From the NCBI GenBank assembly GCA_046290465.1, contig JBKAGP010000001.1, forward strand, positions 4,832,001 through 4,896,000: 64,000 bases of DNA, in the 5' to 3' direction. This DNA comes from Planctomycetota bacterium. GTDB lineage: Bacteria > Planctomycetota > UBA1135 > UBA2386. The stretch's first letter is position 1. Every line of letters begins with the position of its first letter. Made by a program: the position numbers. Positions 12,424 to 24,400 of the stretch are shown here, one piece after another.

Positions 12424-15400
12424 TTCGTCACCTCCAACCGCAATGCCAACTCGGTCACCGTGCTTCGCAACACCACGCTCGCGGCGGCGACCGCGCCGAC
12501 GATGACGGTCGGTGGACCGGTGGCCGTCGGCCAGGCGACTCCAGTGCTGCTGTCGAACCCTCAGGACGCGGGCATGTTCTACCTGAGTGCGCTGTCGCGC
12601 TTCGCCGGCCCTTCGATCCCGCTCGGCGACGGGCGTTCGATCCCGCTGGGACCGTCCGACGTGCTCGACTTCACGCTCGGGTCCAACCCCGTCTACCAGG
12701 ATTCGTTCGGTGTGCTCGGCGGCAGCGGTCACGCCTTCGCCCGGCTGGTGTTGCCCAACACGCCGCTGCTGAACGGCTTCACGTTCTACGGCACGTTCGT
12801 GGTGTTCGATGCCGGCAGGTTCTTGTCGATCGGGTCGATTGCCGACCAGGTCGTCATCCAGGTGCCCTGATCGATCGGCGCCGCACTCGCCCGCGGCGCG
12901 TCGCGGCTTCGGTCGCGTGCATCCATGGACCACTTGCTCATGATCCTGGCCGTGCTCGCCACCGGCCTGGTGTTGACCGCGCTGGTGCGTCGGCGCGCTG
13001 CGGCGCGTGCCGACGTTCGCAGCCTCGACGACCGTTCGTTGGCGGTCGAGCGGGGCAGCCACCGTGCCCGCCTGCAGCACCCGAGCGTCGACCTCGCCAA
13101 CTGCATCGGCTGCGGGGCCTGCGTGCGTGCCTGCCCCGAAGAAGGCGTGTTGCAGATGGCCTACGGCCAGGCGGTGGTCGTGCACGGTGCCCGTTGCGTC
13201 GGCCACGGCCTCTGTGCGGAGGCCTGTCCGACCTCGGCGATCGCGCTGACGCTCGGCGATCTGTCGTCGCGCCGCGATCTGCCGGCGGTCGACGAACGCA
13301 ACCAGGCCATCGGTGTCGACGGGCTGTTCCTCGCCGGTGAGATCACCGGCTTCGCTCTGGTGCGGACCGCGGTGGCACACGGTGCCGCCGTGGCGGCAGC
13401 GGTGCGCGAACGCGTCGATGCGGACGCTTGCGACGACGACCTCGCCGACCTGGTCGTGCTCGGCGCGGGCCCGGCGGGGCTTTCGTGCCTACTCGCCGCC
13501 AAGGAACTCGGCCTGCACGCGGTCGGCCTCGACCAGGCGGACGAGATCGGCGGAACCGTCGCCGCCTATCCGCGGCGCAAGCTCGTAATGACGCAGCCGA
13601 TGCGTTTGCCGCTGCACGGCCGACTCGATCGACTCGAGTACACGCGGGAACAACTGGTCGAACTGTGGCAGCAGCTCGCGCGGAACCACGACCTGGACGT
13701 GCGGCTGCGTACGACCGTGCAGCGCATCGAGCGGGCGGCCGACGGCTGCTTCGACGTCGTCACCGACGCCGGTCGCCACCGCGCACGCAACGTCTGCCTG
13801 GCGGTCGGCCGACGCGGTACGCCGCGCCGCCTCGCGGTGCCCGGGGAGGAACTGGACAAGGTGGCCTACGCGCTACTGGATGCCGCGAGTTATCGCGATC
13901 GGAACATTCTGGTCGTCGGCGGTGGCGACAGCGCGGTCGAGGCAGCGCTGGCGCTGGCCGAACAACCCGGTAACGAGGTGGTGCTGAGCTACCGCCGCGA
14001 ACACTTCTCGCGCCTGAAGGCGAAGAACGAGCGGCGCATCCTGGCCGCGTTCGAGGACGGGTTGGTGGTCCCACGTCTCGGTACGGCGGTGACCGAGATC
14101 ACGCCGGCCGGCGTCGCCCTGCGCGCCTTCGGTGCGGCGCAGAGTTCCGATGCCCAAGCCGTCGCGACGGTCGCGACCGAGCGGCTGGCCAACGACCATG
14201 TGTTCGTGTTCGCCGGCGGCACACCGCCGTTCCCGATGCTGGAATCGGCTGGCGTCTCGTTCGACGCCAGCCTGCTACGGGAGCGTGAGGCGCGCGTCGA
14301 CCGCGGCGCCGGCCTGCTGGTATCGCTCACGTTCACGCTGGCCGGTCTGCTCGCACTGGTCGCCGTGCGACTCTGCTTCGCCGTCTACTACGATCTTGAG
14401 GTCGCTTGGCGTCCATCGGCGGAACTGCACCCGCTGTTGCGACCGCAGGGCGCGCTCGGCCTCGCTTGTGGCGCAGCAGCGGTGCTGCTGTTCCTGGCCA
14501 ACGTCTGCTACCTGGTGCGTCGCTCGGCGCGCATCGGGCGCAGGTTGCCCGGCACGTTGCGCAGCTGGATGAACGCGCACGTCGCGACCGGCATCGGTGC
14601 CTTCCTGTGCGCGATCGTGCACAGCGCGTACTCGCTCCGGGACAGCGCCGGTGGTCACGCGCTGCTGGCGATGGGCGTCGTCGTGGGCGCCGGCATCGTC
14701 GGGCGCTGGTTCTACGCGTTCGTCCCGCGGGCGCAGAACGGTCGACAGCAGCGCATCGAAGAACTGTCGCAGCGGGTCGCCGCGATCGCGACGGAGTGGG
14801 ACCGCGATGGACGTGGCATGGGCGTTCAGGCTCGTCGCATGGTCGAAGAACTGGTGGACCGCGCCGAGATCGGCCAGACCCTGCCCGGCCGCATCTGGGG
14901 GCTCGTGCGTAGCCAGTGGCAGCTTCGTCGTCGACTCGAACGATTTGCGGCAGCGGCACGCACCCAGGGGGTGCCCACGCACGACATCGCCCGGATGGTG
15001 CGGCTGTCGCGGCGTTCGTTCCGTCTGGCACTGCAGCTTGCCCACTACGACGACCTGCGGGCCCTGCTGTCGACGTGGCGTTGGCTGCACCGCTGGCTGG
15101 CGCTGCTGTTGGCTGCGCTACTGGTCGTACACGTCGTCTCCGCCGTCCGCTACGGCGGTATCGAGTGGCCGACACCCGGAGCGGAGGGTGGTCGATGAAG
15201 CTCTGGCGTTGGCTGTTGCCAGCCTTGTCGTTGGCTGCCGTGGTCGTCTTCACCTGGTGGGACGTCTCACGGGTGCAGGCCGGTCCGGGACCTCTGCATC
15301 CGGTCCACGCGATGGCGAGCGGGCTCGACCGTGGTGCCAACTGCGCGGGCTGTCACGAGCGCGGTGCGGTGGCCGCCAGCGGTTGCATCGCATGCCACCA

Positions 15401-21400: not shown

Positions 21401-24400
21401 CGTGGCATCAGCACGGTCGGCCGCTGCCGGGTGAGCGCTGGCACCTGTGGTTAGTGCTGCTCGGCGTGGTGGTCATCTTCTGCATCGCGTTCGACTGGGC
21501 GCGGCACAGCAACCTGCTGATGCTGCCGTTGGTGATCGCGTCGGCGCGCTTCCTGCAGTCGGGCAACGCCTACCGCCTGGTGTTCGCCGGCTTGATCGGG
21601 CTGACGTTGTTCCTGTTCTGGCTGGTGCCGCCGTGGTCGCCGACCGCGTGGCCGACCAACGTCGTCGTCGAGGGCCCGGTGGAATGGCGGCAGGAGTTCA
21701 ACCCGACCAACCATCCCGCCAAGCGCCTGATGATCCAGTCGGGTCTGGTCGTGCCCTATCCGGGCGCGAAGGGGCTGAACATCGGCTTCGGCCCGCTGTC
21801 GTCGGCGCTGCAGGGGTGGCTGCCGGTCGTGTGGCGCACGTTGCTCGTCTGCCACCTGATCGGCGTGGCAATCTGGATCGGCGGATGGCTGCTGACGCGT
21901 CTGCGCCGGTTCGCGCCGCCGCCTCCGAACGGCCACCTGGCCAGCGGTTCGTGAGTGCTGTCCGCCGCGATCTGGCTGGTCGGTAGGTGGGTGGGGCGTA
22001 GGGTTTTGTCGCGGTGCGGATGTGTCCGATACTGGCGGGATGACCGATGTGATGGCCGGATGGACCTCGGACAACCCGTTCTCGACTCCCAGTGTGCTGC
22101 CGTTCGAGGCTCCGGCGTTCGATCGGATCCGTGAAGAGCACTACCTGCCGGCGTTCCGTGCCGGTATGCAGCGGCACCTCGAGGAGGTGCGCGCGATCGC
22201 CGGCAGCGACGAGGCGCCGACGTTCGCCAACACGGTCGAGGCGATGGAACGGGCCGGCGACGTGCTCGAGCGCACCGCGCGGGTGTTCTTCAACCTGACC
22301 GGTTCGACGACGACCGACGGGCTGCAGAAGATCCAGGCGGAGGTCGCGCCGGAGCTCGCGGCGCACAGCGACTCGATCTGGCTGGACGCGCAGCTGTTCG
22401 CGCGCGTGCAGGAGGTCTACGACCGACGCGACGCGCTGCAGCCGGAGGAGAAGCAGCTGACCGAGCGCTACCACCTGTCGTTCGTCCGTCACGGCGCGCG
22501 ACTCGACGAGGCGCAGCAGCAGCGCATCCGGGAGATCAACGAGCGCAGCTCGCAGCTGACGACCAGGTTTCAGGAGTGCCTGCTCAAGGAGACCCAGGCG
22601 CTCGGCGTGCTCGTCGACGACAAGGCGGAGCTCGCCGGCCTCAGCGACGGCGACGTCTCCGCCGCCGCGGACGCGGCCAAGGCCGCCGGTCACGAGGGCA
22701 AGTACCTGATCACGATCGAGCTGCCGACGTCGCAGGGGATCCTGTCGTCGCTGGCCGATCGCGACACGCGCCGCCGCGTCTACAACGCGTCGATCTCGCG
22801 CTGCAACCGCGACAACGAGCACGACACCAAGGAGATCGCCCGGGAGCTGTGCGCGCTGCGCGCCGAACGCGCCGCGCTGCTCGGCTACGAGACCCACGGT
22901 CACTACGTGCTCGCCGACGAGACTGCCGGCACCCCGGACGCGGTGCGCGAGATGATGGGCAGCATGACCGCGGCGATCGTCGACAAGGCGAAGGCCGAGG
23001 CCGCCGAGCTGCAGAAGCACCTCGACGAACATCTGCCGGGCACGCAGCTCGAGCCGTGGGACTGGGCCTGGGTCGCCGAGCAGGTGCGCCAGGCCCGCTA
23101 CGACCTCGACGAGAACGAGGTGAAGCAGTTCTTCGAGTTCGAGCGGGTCCTGACCGACGGCCTGTTCTTCATGGCCGAGCAGCTCTACGGCGTGACGATG
23201 AAGGAGCGCACCGACCTGCCGGTCTACCACGACGACGTGCGCGTGTTCGAGATGTTCGACGACGCCGGGGAGTCGATCGCGTTGTTCTATGCCGACTACT
23301 ACGCGCGGCCGAGCAAGCGCGGCGGAGCCTGGATGAGCAGCTTCGTCGACCAGTCGACGCTGCACGGCCACAAGCCGGTCGTCGTCAACGTGATGAACAT
23401 CAAGAAGCCGAGCCAGGGTCCGACCCTGATGAGCTTCGACGAGGTCACCACGATGTTCCACGAGTTCGGCCACGGCGTGCACGGCATGTTCAGCCAGGTG
23501 CGCTTCCCGATGCTGTCGGGTACCTCGGTGCCGCGCGACTTCGTCGAGTTTCCGTCGCAGTTCCACGAGGACTTCGCGTTCGACCCGGCAGTGCTGGAGC
23601 GCTGCGCGAAGCACTACCGGACCGGGGACGCGATGCCCGACGAACTGCTGGCCAAGGTCAAGCGCGCCCGCAAGTTCGGCCAGGGCTTCGCGTCGCTCGA
23701 GTACATCGCCGCCGCCTGGCTCGACCTCGCCTGGCACTCGTTGCCGAACGGTACCCAGGTCGACGACGTCGCCGCGTTCGAGCGCCAGGCGCTGCAGGCC
23801 GCGGGTGTGCACATGGAGCTGGTGCCGCCGCGCTACAAGAGCACCTACTTCGCGCACATCTGGCCGGGCGGCTACTCGGCTGGCTACTACGCCTACCTGT
23901 GGAGCGAGGCGCTGGCCGCCGACGGCTTCGCCGGCTGCATGGAGAACGGCGGCATGACGCGCGAGAACGGCCAGCGCTTCCGCGACGCGGTCCTGTGCCG
24001 CGGACTCACCCAGGAACCGCTCGCCCAGTTCCGCTCCTTCCGCGGCCGCGAACTGGACACCACTGCCGTCCTCGAACGCCGCGGCATCGGTTCGTAGGCC
24101 CAGTCTCGGTAGGCCCGGTTTCGGTAGGCCCGGTTCCGGTAGTCCCGGTTCCGTAAGTCAGGTTCCGGGACGAAGCCTCCCGGACCGCCCTGGTCGCGCG
24201 AAGAACGGCCGCTACCGGAGCACGTCCCGGTAGGCGAACAGGCTCGGCATGCCGCCAGTGTGCACGAACAGCACGTTCTCGTGCTTGCTGATCGAGCCGT
24301 CGCGGATCATGCCGATCAGGCCGGCGACGATCTTGCCGGTGTAGACGGGGTCGAGCAGGATGCCCTCGCTGCGCGCCATCAGCTGCACGGCCTCGACCAT

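Follow-up and report, generated by a model that had tools for sequence, protein, structure and literature searches.

How might electrons from the cytoplasm of a planctomycete be brought to an acceptor outside the cell? The question is raised by a gene cluster on the + strand of the window (the whole 64,000-nucleotide stretch of Planctomycetota DNA analyzed here), in which genes for two multihaem cytochromes flank one for a predicted barrel. Our preferred reading, to which we assign a probability of roughly 0.55 on the basis of sequence comparisons and structural models, is that genes A to D encode an outward, probably NADPH-fed porin-cytochrome wire spanning the envelope. If this is true, a chain of Fe-S clusters, flavin and about 47 haem groups would connect the cell interior to the outside.

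Gene order and conservation of the cluster

The four genes occupy positions 12925-20532 of the window and are translationally coupled. Gene A (12925..15198, 757 aa) codes for a membrane helix, two [4Fe-4S] sites, a TrxR/FNR-like flavoprotein and a five-helix domain; gene B (15195..17165, 656 aa) for a c7/c3-type cytochrome with 23 CxxCH motifs; gene C (17162..18811, 549 aa) for a signal peptide, a small beta domain and a modelled barrel; and gene D (18811..20532, 573 aa) for a lipoprotein cytochrome with 22 CxxCH motifs in triheme repeats. Start and stop codons overlap as ATGA at A/B, where the ATG of B overlaps the TGA of A, and at B/C, and as TGATG at C/D. Translations of the window confirmed the gene positions, the strand and the 23- and 22-haem counts given in an earlier note on this DNA.

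Synteny was evaluated in 80 loci from 150 species-level genomes encoding a relative of C. The order A-B-C-D was strictly kept, with A present in 73/73 loci having at least 2.6 kb upstream, and B in 78/79 and D in 78/78 of the loci with enough flank. The flanking genes are not conserved: the window neighbours of A-D had relatives in none of the related loci, and the best other flank cluster was found in 13/57. Gene E (20626..21954, + strand, 442 aa), a polytopic membrane protein without a match in Pfam or NCBIfam, starts 64 to 94 nt past the stop of D, depending on the start codon, and had been counted as the fifth member of the operon. It has no relative in any of the 80 loci and is a neighbour outside the conserved unit. 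A paralogue of E is encoded elsewhere in the same genome.

The second, paralogous operon that had been claimed was recovered 158 kb away (genome positions 5002749-5012274), with cytochromes of 23, 7 and 11 CxxCH motifs and a barrel 31% identical to C (E 1.7e-38). There, the 7-haem N-terminal module of D is a gene of its own, and the two versions are 50% identical.

The predicted inner-membrane component

The N-terminal half of A is as previously described, a double Fe-S protein joined to a YpdA/thioredoxin-reductase-like flavoprotein. The ferredoxin domain (residues 53-107; 13081..13245, + strand) matches Fer4_10 with an E value of 8.1e-10, Pfam placing Fer4 at 53-107, and has the motifs C60xxC63xxC66xxxC70P and C91xxH94xxC97xxxC101P, the latter with His where the second Cys is expected. 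The Cys residues and H94 are kept in 66/66 aligned A proteins, and CxxHxxCxxxC is also found in the Emticicia homologue. The flavoprotein (residues 175-450; 13447..14274, + strand; Pyr_redox_3 E 3.3e-31, Pyr_redox_2 E 5.4e-21) carries two dinucleotide-binding motifs, GAGPAG at 180 and GGGDSA at 332. It scores 120.7 bits against YpdA (NCBIfam TIGR04018), under the cut-off of 339.9, and the solved structures nearest to it are those of YpdA/Bdr, TrxR and TrxR-type ferredoxin-NADP reductases (PDB 7a76, 7a7b, 3ab1, 3lzw).

The remainder of A (residues about 455-757; 14287..15195, + strand) is a membrane domain of five helices that contains the motif WX3HX13H twice, as W548x3H552x13H566 and W718x3H722x13H736. 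All four His are invariant in 30/30 sequences; in 66 sequences the conservation is 1.0 for H552 and H566 and 0.98 for H722 and H736. He et al. 2017 (PMC5566968) describe two such motifs in the inner-membrane protein (IMP) of the porin-cytochrome conduits PCC3/PCC4 and read them as di-haem b sites. By its motifs we consider the domain of A a putative di-haem cytochrome b of the IMP type. At 715-743, Ferric_reduct (22.6 bits) and DUF4405 (20.5 bits) stay below their Pfam thresholds of 28 and 26.7. Foldseek gave no match for the domain, and for its AlphaFold2 model (pLDDT 83.3) VIA returned CybB (5oc0_A, Z 9.4), cytochrome b561 (4o6y_A, Z 7.7) and the Hyd-1 cytochrome b (4gd3_A, Z 7.4), a Z range that VIA itself rates as uninformative where helical bundles are concerned.

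The topology of A, left unsettled by the earlier note, can now be inferred. An RRR follows TM1, the loop 534-548 has 4 K+R and that at 601-717 has 22, and the N-terminus offers no room for a Tat signal, so that by the positive-inside rule the Fe-S/FAD part would lie in the cytoplasm. The C-terminal domain, which had been overlooked, would putatively fill the inner-membrane gap of the conduit. Electrons from NAD(P)H in the cytoplasm, NADPH being the likeliest donor, would pass to the FAD, then to the two Fe-S clusters held at the membrane by the N-terminal helix, and would finally cross the inner membrane via a pair of bis-His b haems, ligated by H552/H722 near the cytoplasm and H566/H736 near the periplasm.

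The same hardware could also be quinone coupled and/or run inward, with the five-helix domain as a quinone-reactive cytochrome b. Electrons from Fe(II), Mn(II) or another outside donor would then enter the quinone pool, or quinol would feed the wire, and the flavoprotein/Fe-S part would serve as a side branch, either NAD(P)H:quinone or regulatory. He et al. proposed quinone exchange for IMPs; those of PCC3/PCC4, which share the motifs, were found in iron oxidisers and modelled as quinone linked (PMC5566968). Three more conserved His of A, two facing the periplasm (H502, H578) and one the cytoplasm (H707), lack an assigned role, which also fits this reading. However, the membrane domain is fused to the cytoplasmic FAD/Fe-S module in 73/73 Planctomycetota loci. 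Stand-alone IMPs with WX3HX13H pairs also adjoin flavoprotein/Fe-S and multihaem cytochrome genes in Emticicia, Sphingobium and a third cluster of this genome, as well as on 7 metagenome contigs, so that the same parts are linked in three different gene arrangements. Both the fusion and the linkage argue for a cytoplasmic redox partner. By established bioenergetics, electrons going from outside to NAD(P)+ would have to climb in potential and move against the membrane potential, which looks unfavourable. Quinone-coupled or inward operation appears unlikely. The earlier note had read the cluster as a porin-cytochrome wire running outward or inward; a conduit fed by the Fe-S flavoprotein is still the best reading, given the strict synteny and the lipobox of D (see below), while the inward direction is disfavoured.

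A possible path from the periplasm to the cell surface

Gene B has 28.5 aa per haem, matches Cytochrome_C7 of Pfam in nine stretches (E 5e-24) and keeps all 23 haem motifs invariant in 11 sequences, Emticicia included. Its single N-terminal membrane helix is probably an uncleaved anchor, and we presume that the protein is the wire across the periplasm, tethered to the inner membrane and taking electrons from A.

Protein C belongs to no Pfam or NCBIfam family, its sole match being DUF7840 (E 0.077), whose 13.1 bits fall short of the cut-off of 27, and family searches place it outside MtrB/PioB. A word-index search gave 96 homologues, all named ones "hypothetical protein" of Planctomycetota/Planctomycetes, just as had been stated, and its relatives amount to 1369 representatives at E<=1e-3. 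An independent AlphaFold2 model from 26 sequences (pLDDT 79.2) reproduced the N-terminal beta domain (28-103) followed by 22 strands (149-548). The signal peptide of C is cleavable, its AxA-Q site being conserved, and 22/26 relatives end in Phe. Foldseek matched the model to 358 PDB chains at E<=0.001, headed by PapC (2vqi_B, 2.3e-9, TM 0.44). Fold matches were outer-membrane barrels only; in a second comparison 22-strand TonB-dependent transporters were best (Z 16-17), with MtrB at rank 38 (Z 12.8). The fold matches of the modelled barrel are thus generic.

Protein D has 26.0 aa per haem, with three haems in each repeat of ~72 aa. It carries the lipobox LLVVAC, and a lipobox-type Cys was found in 78/78 relatives (71 by pattern, 7 by eye), whose haem number varies from 13 to 46. 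From the lipid-anchor Cys extends the 7-haem N-terminal module (residues 27-225; 18889..19485, + strand), with a mean column identity of 57% in 30 sequences. We presume D to be the wire through the barrel and outside the cell. Its 7-haem module would be the preferred segment sheathed by the 22-strand barrel at the outer membrane, and its variable triheme repeats would deliver electrons to an external acceptor, for which metal oxides, humics, oxygen or a partner cell are candidates. In a complex prediction pairing C residues 26-549 with this module and leaving B aside, the score was 0.33 (runs 0.33, 0.19 and 0.59), the best of 3 controls reaching 0.00; the runs had at least 40% of contacts in common and a partner pLDDT of at least 59. 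The score mark is passed by 116/157 solved complexes and 2/215 mismatched pairs, and with a score of at most 0.60 it is passed by just 18/157 solved complexes and by both of those mismatches; according to the tool, such a pass is oftener wrong than right unless the pairing is likely a priori. The prediction thus weakly suggests contact between the barrel and the module.

Alternatively, B and D might form a periplasmic reductase or an electron store (capacitor) and C an ordinary porin, with no electron leaving the cell; D would then sit on the inner leaflet of the outer membrane and a soluble substrate would enter via C. Lipoproteins do face the periplasm by default, C folds like substrate channels and transporters (OccK, OprB, chitoporin, TonB-dependent transporters), and the cytochromes show a faint similarity to ExtN/ExtO of a selenite/tellurite operon. 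The latter scores are, however, far below the cut-offs (27.6 and 27.8 against 200), as is that of DmsE (45.3 against 192.2), in line with what had been reported. A general porin placed between two cytochrome genes, in 78/78 loci and with overlapping codons, would be left unexplained, growth of D by triheme units suits an outward reach better than the fixed gap spanned by B, and the weak predicted C-D contact points the same way. We regard a purely periplasmic system as quite unlikely. That C is instead an usher-like export or assembly pore moving D to the surface, outside the working wire, is very unlikely: D must reach the surface somehow and Foldseek ranks the usher pores PapC and FimD highest (E 2.3e-9 to 3e-7), but their TM-scores are low (0.39-0.44), C has no usher, plug or chaperone domains in Pfam, and without a sheath the electrons of B would have no path over the outer membrane.

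Comparison with known conduits

The design had been called undescribed, but He et al. had already published the concept for PCC3/PCC4, in which a porin is combined with a long cytochrome in the periplasm, an outer one built of repeats and a protein of the inner membrane carrying two WX3HX13H motifs (PMC5566968). The same text gives 22-39 aa per haem for PCC3 cytochromes, a range that includes both B (28.5) and D (26.0), whose values are wire-like. PCC3 is, in our best reading, the closest in design to the putative A-D conduit. A ferredoxin-NADP reductase gene beside another PCC type was noted in 2026 (PMC13264449). At the outer membrane A-D would work like PCC3, Mtr and Pcc, and at the inner membrane like NADPH oxidase or di-haem complex II, perhaps bypassing the quinone pool. 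The parts had also been called unrelated to MtrCAB. The barrel does fall outside the MtrB/PioB family, but the cytochromes are not wholly unrelated, since D passes the Pfam cut-off for MtrC/MtrF domain II/IV (40.2 against 30 bits).

Distribution

Near-identical DNA was found in runs labelled algae, aquaculture and marine metagenomes, from which a need for classical metal respiration is not obvious; we counted this against the wire. The system had been seen as a route of the Planctomycetota's own, but it extends beyond the phylum. B-like cytochromes carry Gemmatimonas and Bryobacterales labels, and barrel-like Atlas clusters occur most often in Acidobacteriota, Gemmatimonadota and Bacteroidota. 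A plasmid of Emticicia oligotrophica (Bacteroidota) bears a homologous cluster in which A is divided between two genes and B likewise has 23 haems. Its D homologue has an ordinary signal peptide without a lipobox, indicating that lipid anchoring of D is not universal.

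Gene organization and conservation of the cluster

The earlier note had named five frames on this DNA, and we confirmed both their positions and their contents. All lie on the forward strand: A, a protein joining a 2×[4Fe-4S] domain, a flavoprotein and a five-helix domain (12925 to 15198, 757 aa); B, a 23-haem cytochrome (15195 to 17165, 656 aa counted from the ATG, with 23 CxxCH motifs); C, a barrel protein of no assigned family (17162 to 18811, 549 aa); D, a 22-haem lipoprotein cytochrome (18811 to 20532, 573 aa, with 22 CxxCH motifs); and E, a polytopic membrane protein (20626 to 21954, 442 aa). 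Long spurious frames abound in the window because its G+C content is ca. 70%. Stop and start codons overlap in ATGA at A/B and B/C and in TGATG at C/D, and D and E are separated by 64 to 94 nucleotides, depending on the start codon chosen for E. A promoter and terminator scan gave no promoter-like and four terminator-like sites, not above the level of shuffled sequences. The stretch from 38001 to 44000 has a G+C content of 0.61 to 0.62, compared to ca. 0.70 in the rest of the window, and may on this basis be foreign DNA.

A paralogous operon (operon 2, locus L083; positions 5002749 to 5012274 of the genome) is located 158 kb away. Its first three genes are arranged as A-B-C, with identities to the window copies of 45% for A, 38% for B and 28 to 31% for the barrel, and are followed by genes for a 7-haem and an 11-haem protein. 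The N-terminal part of D is there a separate gene, which codes for the 7-haem lipoprotein. The 11-haem protein, encoded by the last gene (9476 to 12274 of L083, 932 aa), carries its haems sparsely (85 aa per haem) and is a relative of the large decahaem cytochrome of the Sphingobium type (29% identity, E value of 9e-16), and none of the 80 barrel loci compared contains a relative of it. A possible lipobox (FPASC) was also seen in this protein.

A profile built from 26 barrels was used to collect relatives in 150 species-level genomes, from which 80 loci were kept. Among those with enough flanking sequence, A precedes the barrel gene in 73 of 73 and B does so in 78 of 79, and D follows it in 78 of 78; contig ends account for all the misses. 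A-B-C-D is a real, strongly conserved and uncharacterized four-gene system of the porin-cytochrome kind. Its distinctive feature, as predicted from sequence, is an inner-membrane entry module in which a cytoplasmic flavoprotein is joined directly to a pair of transmembrane haems. E, which had been counted as the fifth gene of the operon, has relatives in none of the 80 loci and belongs to no Pfam or NCBIfam family, and we therefore excluded it from the system. A paralogue of E (34% identity) is found at 1856935 to 1857840 of the genome.

The 12 genes flanking the cluster in the window had no match in the loci at an E value of ≤1e-8, and the neighbours here are ordinary ones (an asparaginase, an FG-GAP protein, a peptidase M3, a PLP enzyme and GlyS). 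The commonest other neighbour across the loci is a family-less protein of ca. 1165 aa, which, in 13 of the 57 loci with at least 3 kb of downstream sequence, comes after D in the same orientation (for example, L020, 13123 to 16617).

Protein A, a flavoprotein fused to a putative di-haem membrane domain

Protein A starts with an N-terminal helix, followed by the 2×[4Fe-4S] domain, a thioredoxin reductase (TrxR)-like flavoprotein and ca. 300 residues with five hydrophobic helices. The helix, Fe-S and flavoprotein parts agree with the earlier description, which had overlooked the C-terminal five-helix domain. The flavoprotein matches Pyr_redox_3 with 109.1 bits (cut-off of 30) and carries GAGPAG at 180 and GGGDSA at 332, so that the profile match and both GxGxxG/A motifs place it in the TrxR-like superfamily with two dinucleotide-binding domains. 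Equivalog scores were below the cut-off (YpdA, 120.7 versus 339.9 bits; TrxR, 65.6 versus 343.45 bits), and the nearest solved relatives are YpdA/Bdr, thioredoxin reductases and TrxR-type ferredoxin-NADP reductases (7a76, 7a7b, 3ab1 and 3lzw). After the second dinucleotide motif stands SYRREHFSR, which resembles HRRDxFR, the NADPH-binding motif of thioredoxin reductase. The second cluster motif (residues 91 to 101, window positions 13195 to 13227) reads CxxHxxCxxxC, with a His that is invariant in 66 of 66 Planctomycetota A sequences and present in Emticicia as well. This motif suggests a His-ligated or otherwise atypical cluster adjoining the membrane domain.

Only four residues precede helix 1, which leaves no room for a Tat signal, and RRR directly follows it. 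The loop at 534 to 548 has four K+R and lacks acidic residues, and 22 K+R lie in the segment from 601 to 717. By the positive-inside rule, both loops and the Fe-S/FAD part, whose side of the membrane the earlier note had left as a question, would be cytoplasmic. Such a placement of the loops would put H552 and H722 near the cytoplasmic face and H566 and H736 near the periplasmic one.

The inner-membrane protein (IMP) of the PCC3 and PCC4 clusters was described as a five-helix protein of ca. 300 aa that carries the WX3HX13H motif twice and SGXXG in its fourth helix, and He et al. 2017 interpret it as a di-haem cytochrome b (PMC5566968, sections covered). Residues 455 to 757 of A show the same size, the same number of helices and both motifs. 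Seven His residues of this domain are conserved among 66 aligned A proteins, and four of them form W548-H552-H566 and W718-H722-H736, invariant in 30 of 30 aligned sequences. The fourth helix has TGAIG in the family consensus, GAGIVG in the window copy and SGAIG in the protein P0267. The Ferric_reduct model (PF01794) scored 22.6 bits, versus a gathering score of 28, over residues 715 to 743 only, and the Pfam match of DUF4405 to the last helix was sub-threshold too; some relatives carry precomputed PF01794 or PF14358 matches. His pairs of the PF01794 type are present in A, as H552/H566 and H722/H736, 13 residues apart on two helices. The AF2 model of the membrane domain (pLDDT of 83.3) had no Foldseek match at an E value of ≤0.001. 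With VIA-align, the only matches spanning the membrane helices were di-haem b proteins (CybB, Z of 9.4; cytochrome b561, Z of 7.7; hydrogenase-1 cytochrome b, Z of 7.4), at Z values within the noise range of the tool for helical bundles, and the fold evidence is thus compatible with a di-haem cytochrome b rather than proof of it.

Cytochromes B and D

B and D have 28.5 and 26.0 aa per haem, respectively, and Cytochrome_C7 matches on both (E values of 5e-24 on B and 9.1e-29 on D) identify c7/c3 triheme modules; the nanowire_3heme model gave 25 bits versus a cut-off of 40. The number of CxxCH motifs in 71 complete frames of B relatives was 20 (2 frames), 23 (41 frames), 25 (1 frame), 26 (25 frames) or 29 (2 frames), with the extra triheme unit inserted near residue 388. 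Across 11 sequences, among them that of Emticicia, none of the 23 haem motifs of B varies. The DmsE/MtrA decahaem model (TIGR03508) scored 45.3 bits on B, below its cut-off of 192.2. The N-terminal helix of B is followed by a conserved PGxLxxxH, and the position that would be −1 holds M, I or Q in several of 25 sequences. Because these residues misfit a signal-peptidase site, B is probably held by an uncleaved inner-membrane anchor.

The repeats of D have a period of ca. 72 aa per three haems, and its relatives carry 13 to 46 CxxCH motifs, 54 of 71 falling on the series 13+3n. A lipobox-type Cys stands after a hydrophobic stretch in all 78 D relatives (71 detected by pattern and 7 by eye), and the first 200 residues behind it are the best-conserved stretch of the whole system (mean column identity of 57%). 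D passes the Pfam model of MtrC/MtrF domain II/IV (40.2 bits, cut-off of 30), and no PDB sequence matched it at an E value of ≤0.001. We infer an extracellular location for D.

The barrel and its possible partner

The signal peptide of protein C shows a conserved AxA-Q site, and the C terminus is QWRF in the family consensus; the terminal Phe is found in 22 of 26 barrel sequences, and the window copy ends in WRL. Earlier figures were closely repeated, with 96 homologues, a model of 22 antiparallel strands (pLDDT of 79.2) and 358 Foldseek matches, the best being PapC at 2.3e-9. All the fold matches are outer-membrane barrels. In the fold comparison, MtrB (6r2q_B) ranks 38th, below many unrelated barrels (Z of 12.8, rmsd of 6.6, 341 aligned residues). 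At the level of sequence, PF11854 (MtrB/PioB) has no match at an E value of ≤1 in C, nor any match elsewhere in this genome, which is 94% complete. The strand number and a fold Z of 16 to 17 agree with a TonB-dependent transporter, the top Z values being those of the 22-strand transporters FyuA (16.8), Cir (16.7) and BtuB (16.3). Such a transporter, or an usher, was nevertheless rejected on account of the synteny and the lack of the corresponding domains, as no plug, usher or TonB-dependent-receptor Pfam domain was found in C at an E value of ≤1, with an N-terminal domain of ca. 75 residues.

Complex prediction for C and the 7-haem module of D gave a score of 0.33 (runs of 0.33, 0.19 and 0.59), compared to 0.00 for the best of three controls; the runs share at least 40% of their contacts, with a partner pLDDT of at least 59. 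In the calibration, 116 of 157 solved complexes attained the score mark, compared to 2 of 215 mismatches; those attaining it with a score no higher than 0.60 comprised only 18 of the 157 complexes and both of these mismatches. The models thus give weak support to a contact of C with the 7-haem module.

Comparison with described conduits

By analogy of architecture, the closest described design to A-D is PCC3, a bioinformatic proposal presented without biochemistry in the sections covered (PMC5566968). Like A-D, PCC3 combines four parts: the porin is accompanied by a long cytochrome of the periplasm, an extracellular cytochrome made of repeats and a protein of the inner membrane. All four architectural features are found here, in a comparison by published description and not by sequence homology. 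In the sections covered, the periplasmic cytochrome of PCC3 has a median of 21 haems, with 21, 24 or 27 in Gallionellaceae (PMC5566968, PMC10734462), versus 20 to 29, mostly 23 or 26, in the B family, and the extracellular one has 10 to 35 or more, versus 13 to 46 in the D family. The spacing is 22 to 39 aa per haem, as far as the source was covered (PMC5566968), and 26 to 28.5 here. The inner-membrane part is the IMP alone in PCC3, whereas here it is fused to the cytoplasmic Fe-S flavoprotein (in Emticicia, both are split and adjacent); as described in those sections, PCC3 includes no flavoprotein and was modelled on quinones (PMC5566968). The porins differ as well, with up to 42 predicted transmembrane regions in the described part of PCC3 versus 22 strands modelled for C, and so does the gene order. 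In the same sections, the carriers of PCC3 are given as Alpha-, Beta- and Gammaproteobacteria only, and those of PCC4 subgroup II include Planctomycetes (PMC5566968).

The MtrCAB complex of Shewanella (6R2Q) follows the logic proposed for A-D, with one multihaem cytochrome in the periplasm, a barrel in the outer membrane and a lipoprotein cytochrome outside, although with 10 + 10 haems compared to 23 + 22 in B + D. MtrB has 26 strands, versus 22 in the C model, and the Mtr input is the quinol dehydrogenase CymA, in place of the flavoprotein/cytochrome b fusion. The previous statement that the parts are unrelated to those of MtrCAB holds for the barrel at the family level, as it is not of the MtrB/PioB family, and fails for D in view of its match to the MtrC/MtrF model. 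The c7-type nanowire cytochromes have c7/c3 triheme modules in common with B and D. In the Pcc of Geobacter (OmbB-OmaB-OmcB), the genes of a porin-like protein and of two cytochromes, one periplasmic and one a lipoprotein, are clustered, and as described in the part covered that cluster encodes no inner-membrane component (PMC4282303). Compared by description only, it resembles B-C-D in the clustering of a porin with two cytochromes, which have 8 and 12 haems according to the part covered (PMC4245776), versus 23 and 22 in B and D.

The route proposed for protein A resembles that of NADPH oxidase and ferric reductase, which lead from a cytoplasmic dehydrogenase through two stacked bis-His b haems to a far-side acceptor and share with A the His pairs spaced by 13 residues on two helices. 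Di-haem succinate:quinone oxidoreductase (complex II) provides a comparable route. Unlike these oxidases and reductases, A has a TrxR/FNR-like dehydrogenase with an extra 2×[4Fe-4S], standing before the membrane domain, and its proposed acceptor is a multihaem cytochrome and not O2, an Fe(III) chelate or a quinone. A parallel between the HX13H of the IMP and the FRD domain was drawn in the sections covered of PMC5566968.

In the literature searched, we found no description of an A-B-C-D cluster in Planctomycetota or Emticicia; subscription journals and the supplementary tables of PMC5566968 may hold more. A peat preprint (10.64898/2026.05.27.727921) and a paper on Verrucomicrobia (PMC5615132) describe, in the parts covered, other clusters with 8- to 13-haem cytochromes.

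Distribution and the Emticicia cluster

An exhaustive search with the barrel profile retrieved 1369 representatives (at 50% identity) at an E value of ≤1e-3, 348 of them at ≤1e-30. The barrel is present in 38 of 401 sampled Planctomycetota genomes (31 of the 243 of high quality), often in two copies. The system also occurs outside Planctomycetota, as a homologous cluster was found in Emticicia oligotrophica DSM 17448 (Bacteroidota), located on the 100-kb linear plasmid record pEMTOL02 (L086, 3619 to 15417). The cluster is headed by ccsA (cytochrome c biogenesis, 1028 aa), followed by an IMP of 281 aa (E value of 6e-32 with the IMP profile, both WX3HX13H motifs), a helix + Fe-S + flavoprotein of 440 aa (39% identity to residues 4 to 446 of A), a 23-CxxCH cytochrome (29% identity to B over the full length), a 40-CxxCH cytochrome (36% identity to D, with an ordinary signal peptide and no lipobox) and a barrel homologue of 538 aa (E value of 6e-22 with the barrel profile). 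According to the record, the strain originates from warm spring water.

Matches to the B profile include sequences labelled Gemmatimonas sp., Bryobacterales and Planctomycetes bacterium Pla163, and there were no Proteobacteria among the best 120 of 1021 matches. As leads from a protein atlas, barrel-like clusters were commonest in Acidobacteriota, Gemmatimonadota and Bacteroidota. A barrel search against plasmid records gave no match. The runs containing at least half of the sampled words of this DNA, with the possible source excluded, came from five studies, labelled as aquaculture or marine metagenomes or with coded organism names, and no RNA run was among those listed.

Proposed route of electrons

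Within A, electrons would pass from NAD(P)H to FAD, the two Fe-S clusters and the two haems b, and from A they would continue through B and D, the latter sheathed by C, to an acceptor outside the cell. Outward flow would be downhill in potential, and we set aside the inward direction, to NAD(P)+, on energetic grounds, since it would run uphill and against the membrane potential. As such a chain pumps no protons, it would act as a redox valve and not as an energy-conserving respiration, unless coupled elsewhere. The run labels and the origin of Emticicia make oxic settings, with acceptors such as Fe/Mn oxides, humics and oxygen, worth considering.

A bolder reading, to which we give roughly one chance in four, is that of a self-contained wire bypassing the quinone pool. 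The NADPH oxidase-like fusion A (NADPH, FAD, two Fe-S clusters and two haems b) would feed the 23-haem periplasmic cable; D would be anchored on the periplasmic side, with its 7-haem module passing through the 22-strand barrel and the length of the outer cable set by triheme repeats. Its carriers would be aerobic or facultative heterotrophs from several phyla (Planctomycetota, Bacteroidota and probably Acidobacteriota and Gemmatimonadota), in which it would act as a redox valve and not as a proton-motive respiratory chain, delivering electrons of NADPH to Fe/Mn oxides, humics or oxygen. If so, this valve would be a candidate enzymatic source of extracellular superoxide and of metal reduction in many heterotrophs. 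Known routes of extracellular electron transfer in Gram-negative bacteria (Mtr and Pcc) begin at the quinone pool, and entry via a flavoprotein/Fe-S/cytochrome b fusion would be another way of connecting metabolism with the exterior. The conduit hypothesis can be tested at the bench, because there are cultured carriers, namely, E. oligotrophica with its plasmid and the source of the B homologue labelled Pla163.

Flavoprotein-IMP linkage in other clusters

Three other places have stand-alone IMPs with the same motifs beside flavoprotein/Fe-S genes and genes for multihaem cytochromes: the megaplasmid of Sphingobium herbicidovorans, seven metagenome contigs and, outside the window, a third multihaem cluster of this same genome (L085, ca. 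2611000 to 2631300). One such IMP (P0289) and its metagenome relatives show the Sphingobium-type arrangement and not that of PCC3. Like A-D, this type brings together an FNR/TrxR-like flavoprotein, an Fe-S protein, an IMP and multihaem cytochromes, but as separate genes and with added FHA and cNMP-binding domains, and its 10-haem cytochrome of ca. 1330 aa is unlike B or D. The presumed porin, hyp612, has no detectable kinship to C, and the barrel profile found no match in the Sphingobium cluster or the seven metagenome loci. A 2026 survey reported, in the part covered, ferredoxin-NADP reductase genes near the large-decahaem PCC group (PMC13264449), which corresponds to the Sphingobium pMSHV type and the L085 cluster and not to A-D.

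Planctomycetota thus have flavoprotein and IMP as one fused protein, whereas Emticicia and the Sphingobium type encode them separately, in two different orders. As their gene linkage outlasts rearrangement, it provides good evidence of a functional partnership. For the IMP of PCC3 and PCC4, this points to a probable redox partner in the cytoplasm, which is of relevance to the crossing of the inner membrane in iron oxidisers and reducers.

The L085 cluster encodes cytochromes with 15, 17 and 10 haems and an IMP-type membrane protein, together with a protein combining cNMP-binding and Fer4 domains, a flavoprotein with Pyr_redox, FHA and Fer2 domains and proteins with FHA domains. The 612-aa hypothetical protein from the Sphingobium cluster has a homologue there (37% identity), and the 10-haem protein of ca. 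1355 aa has 43% identity to the Sphingobium counterpart.
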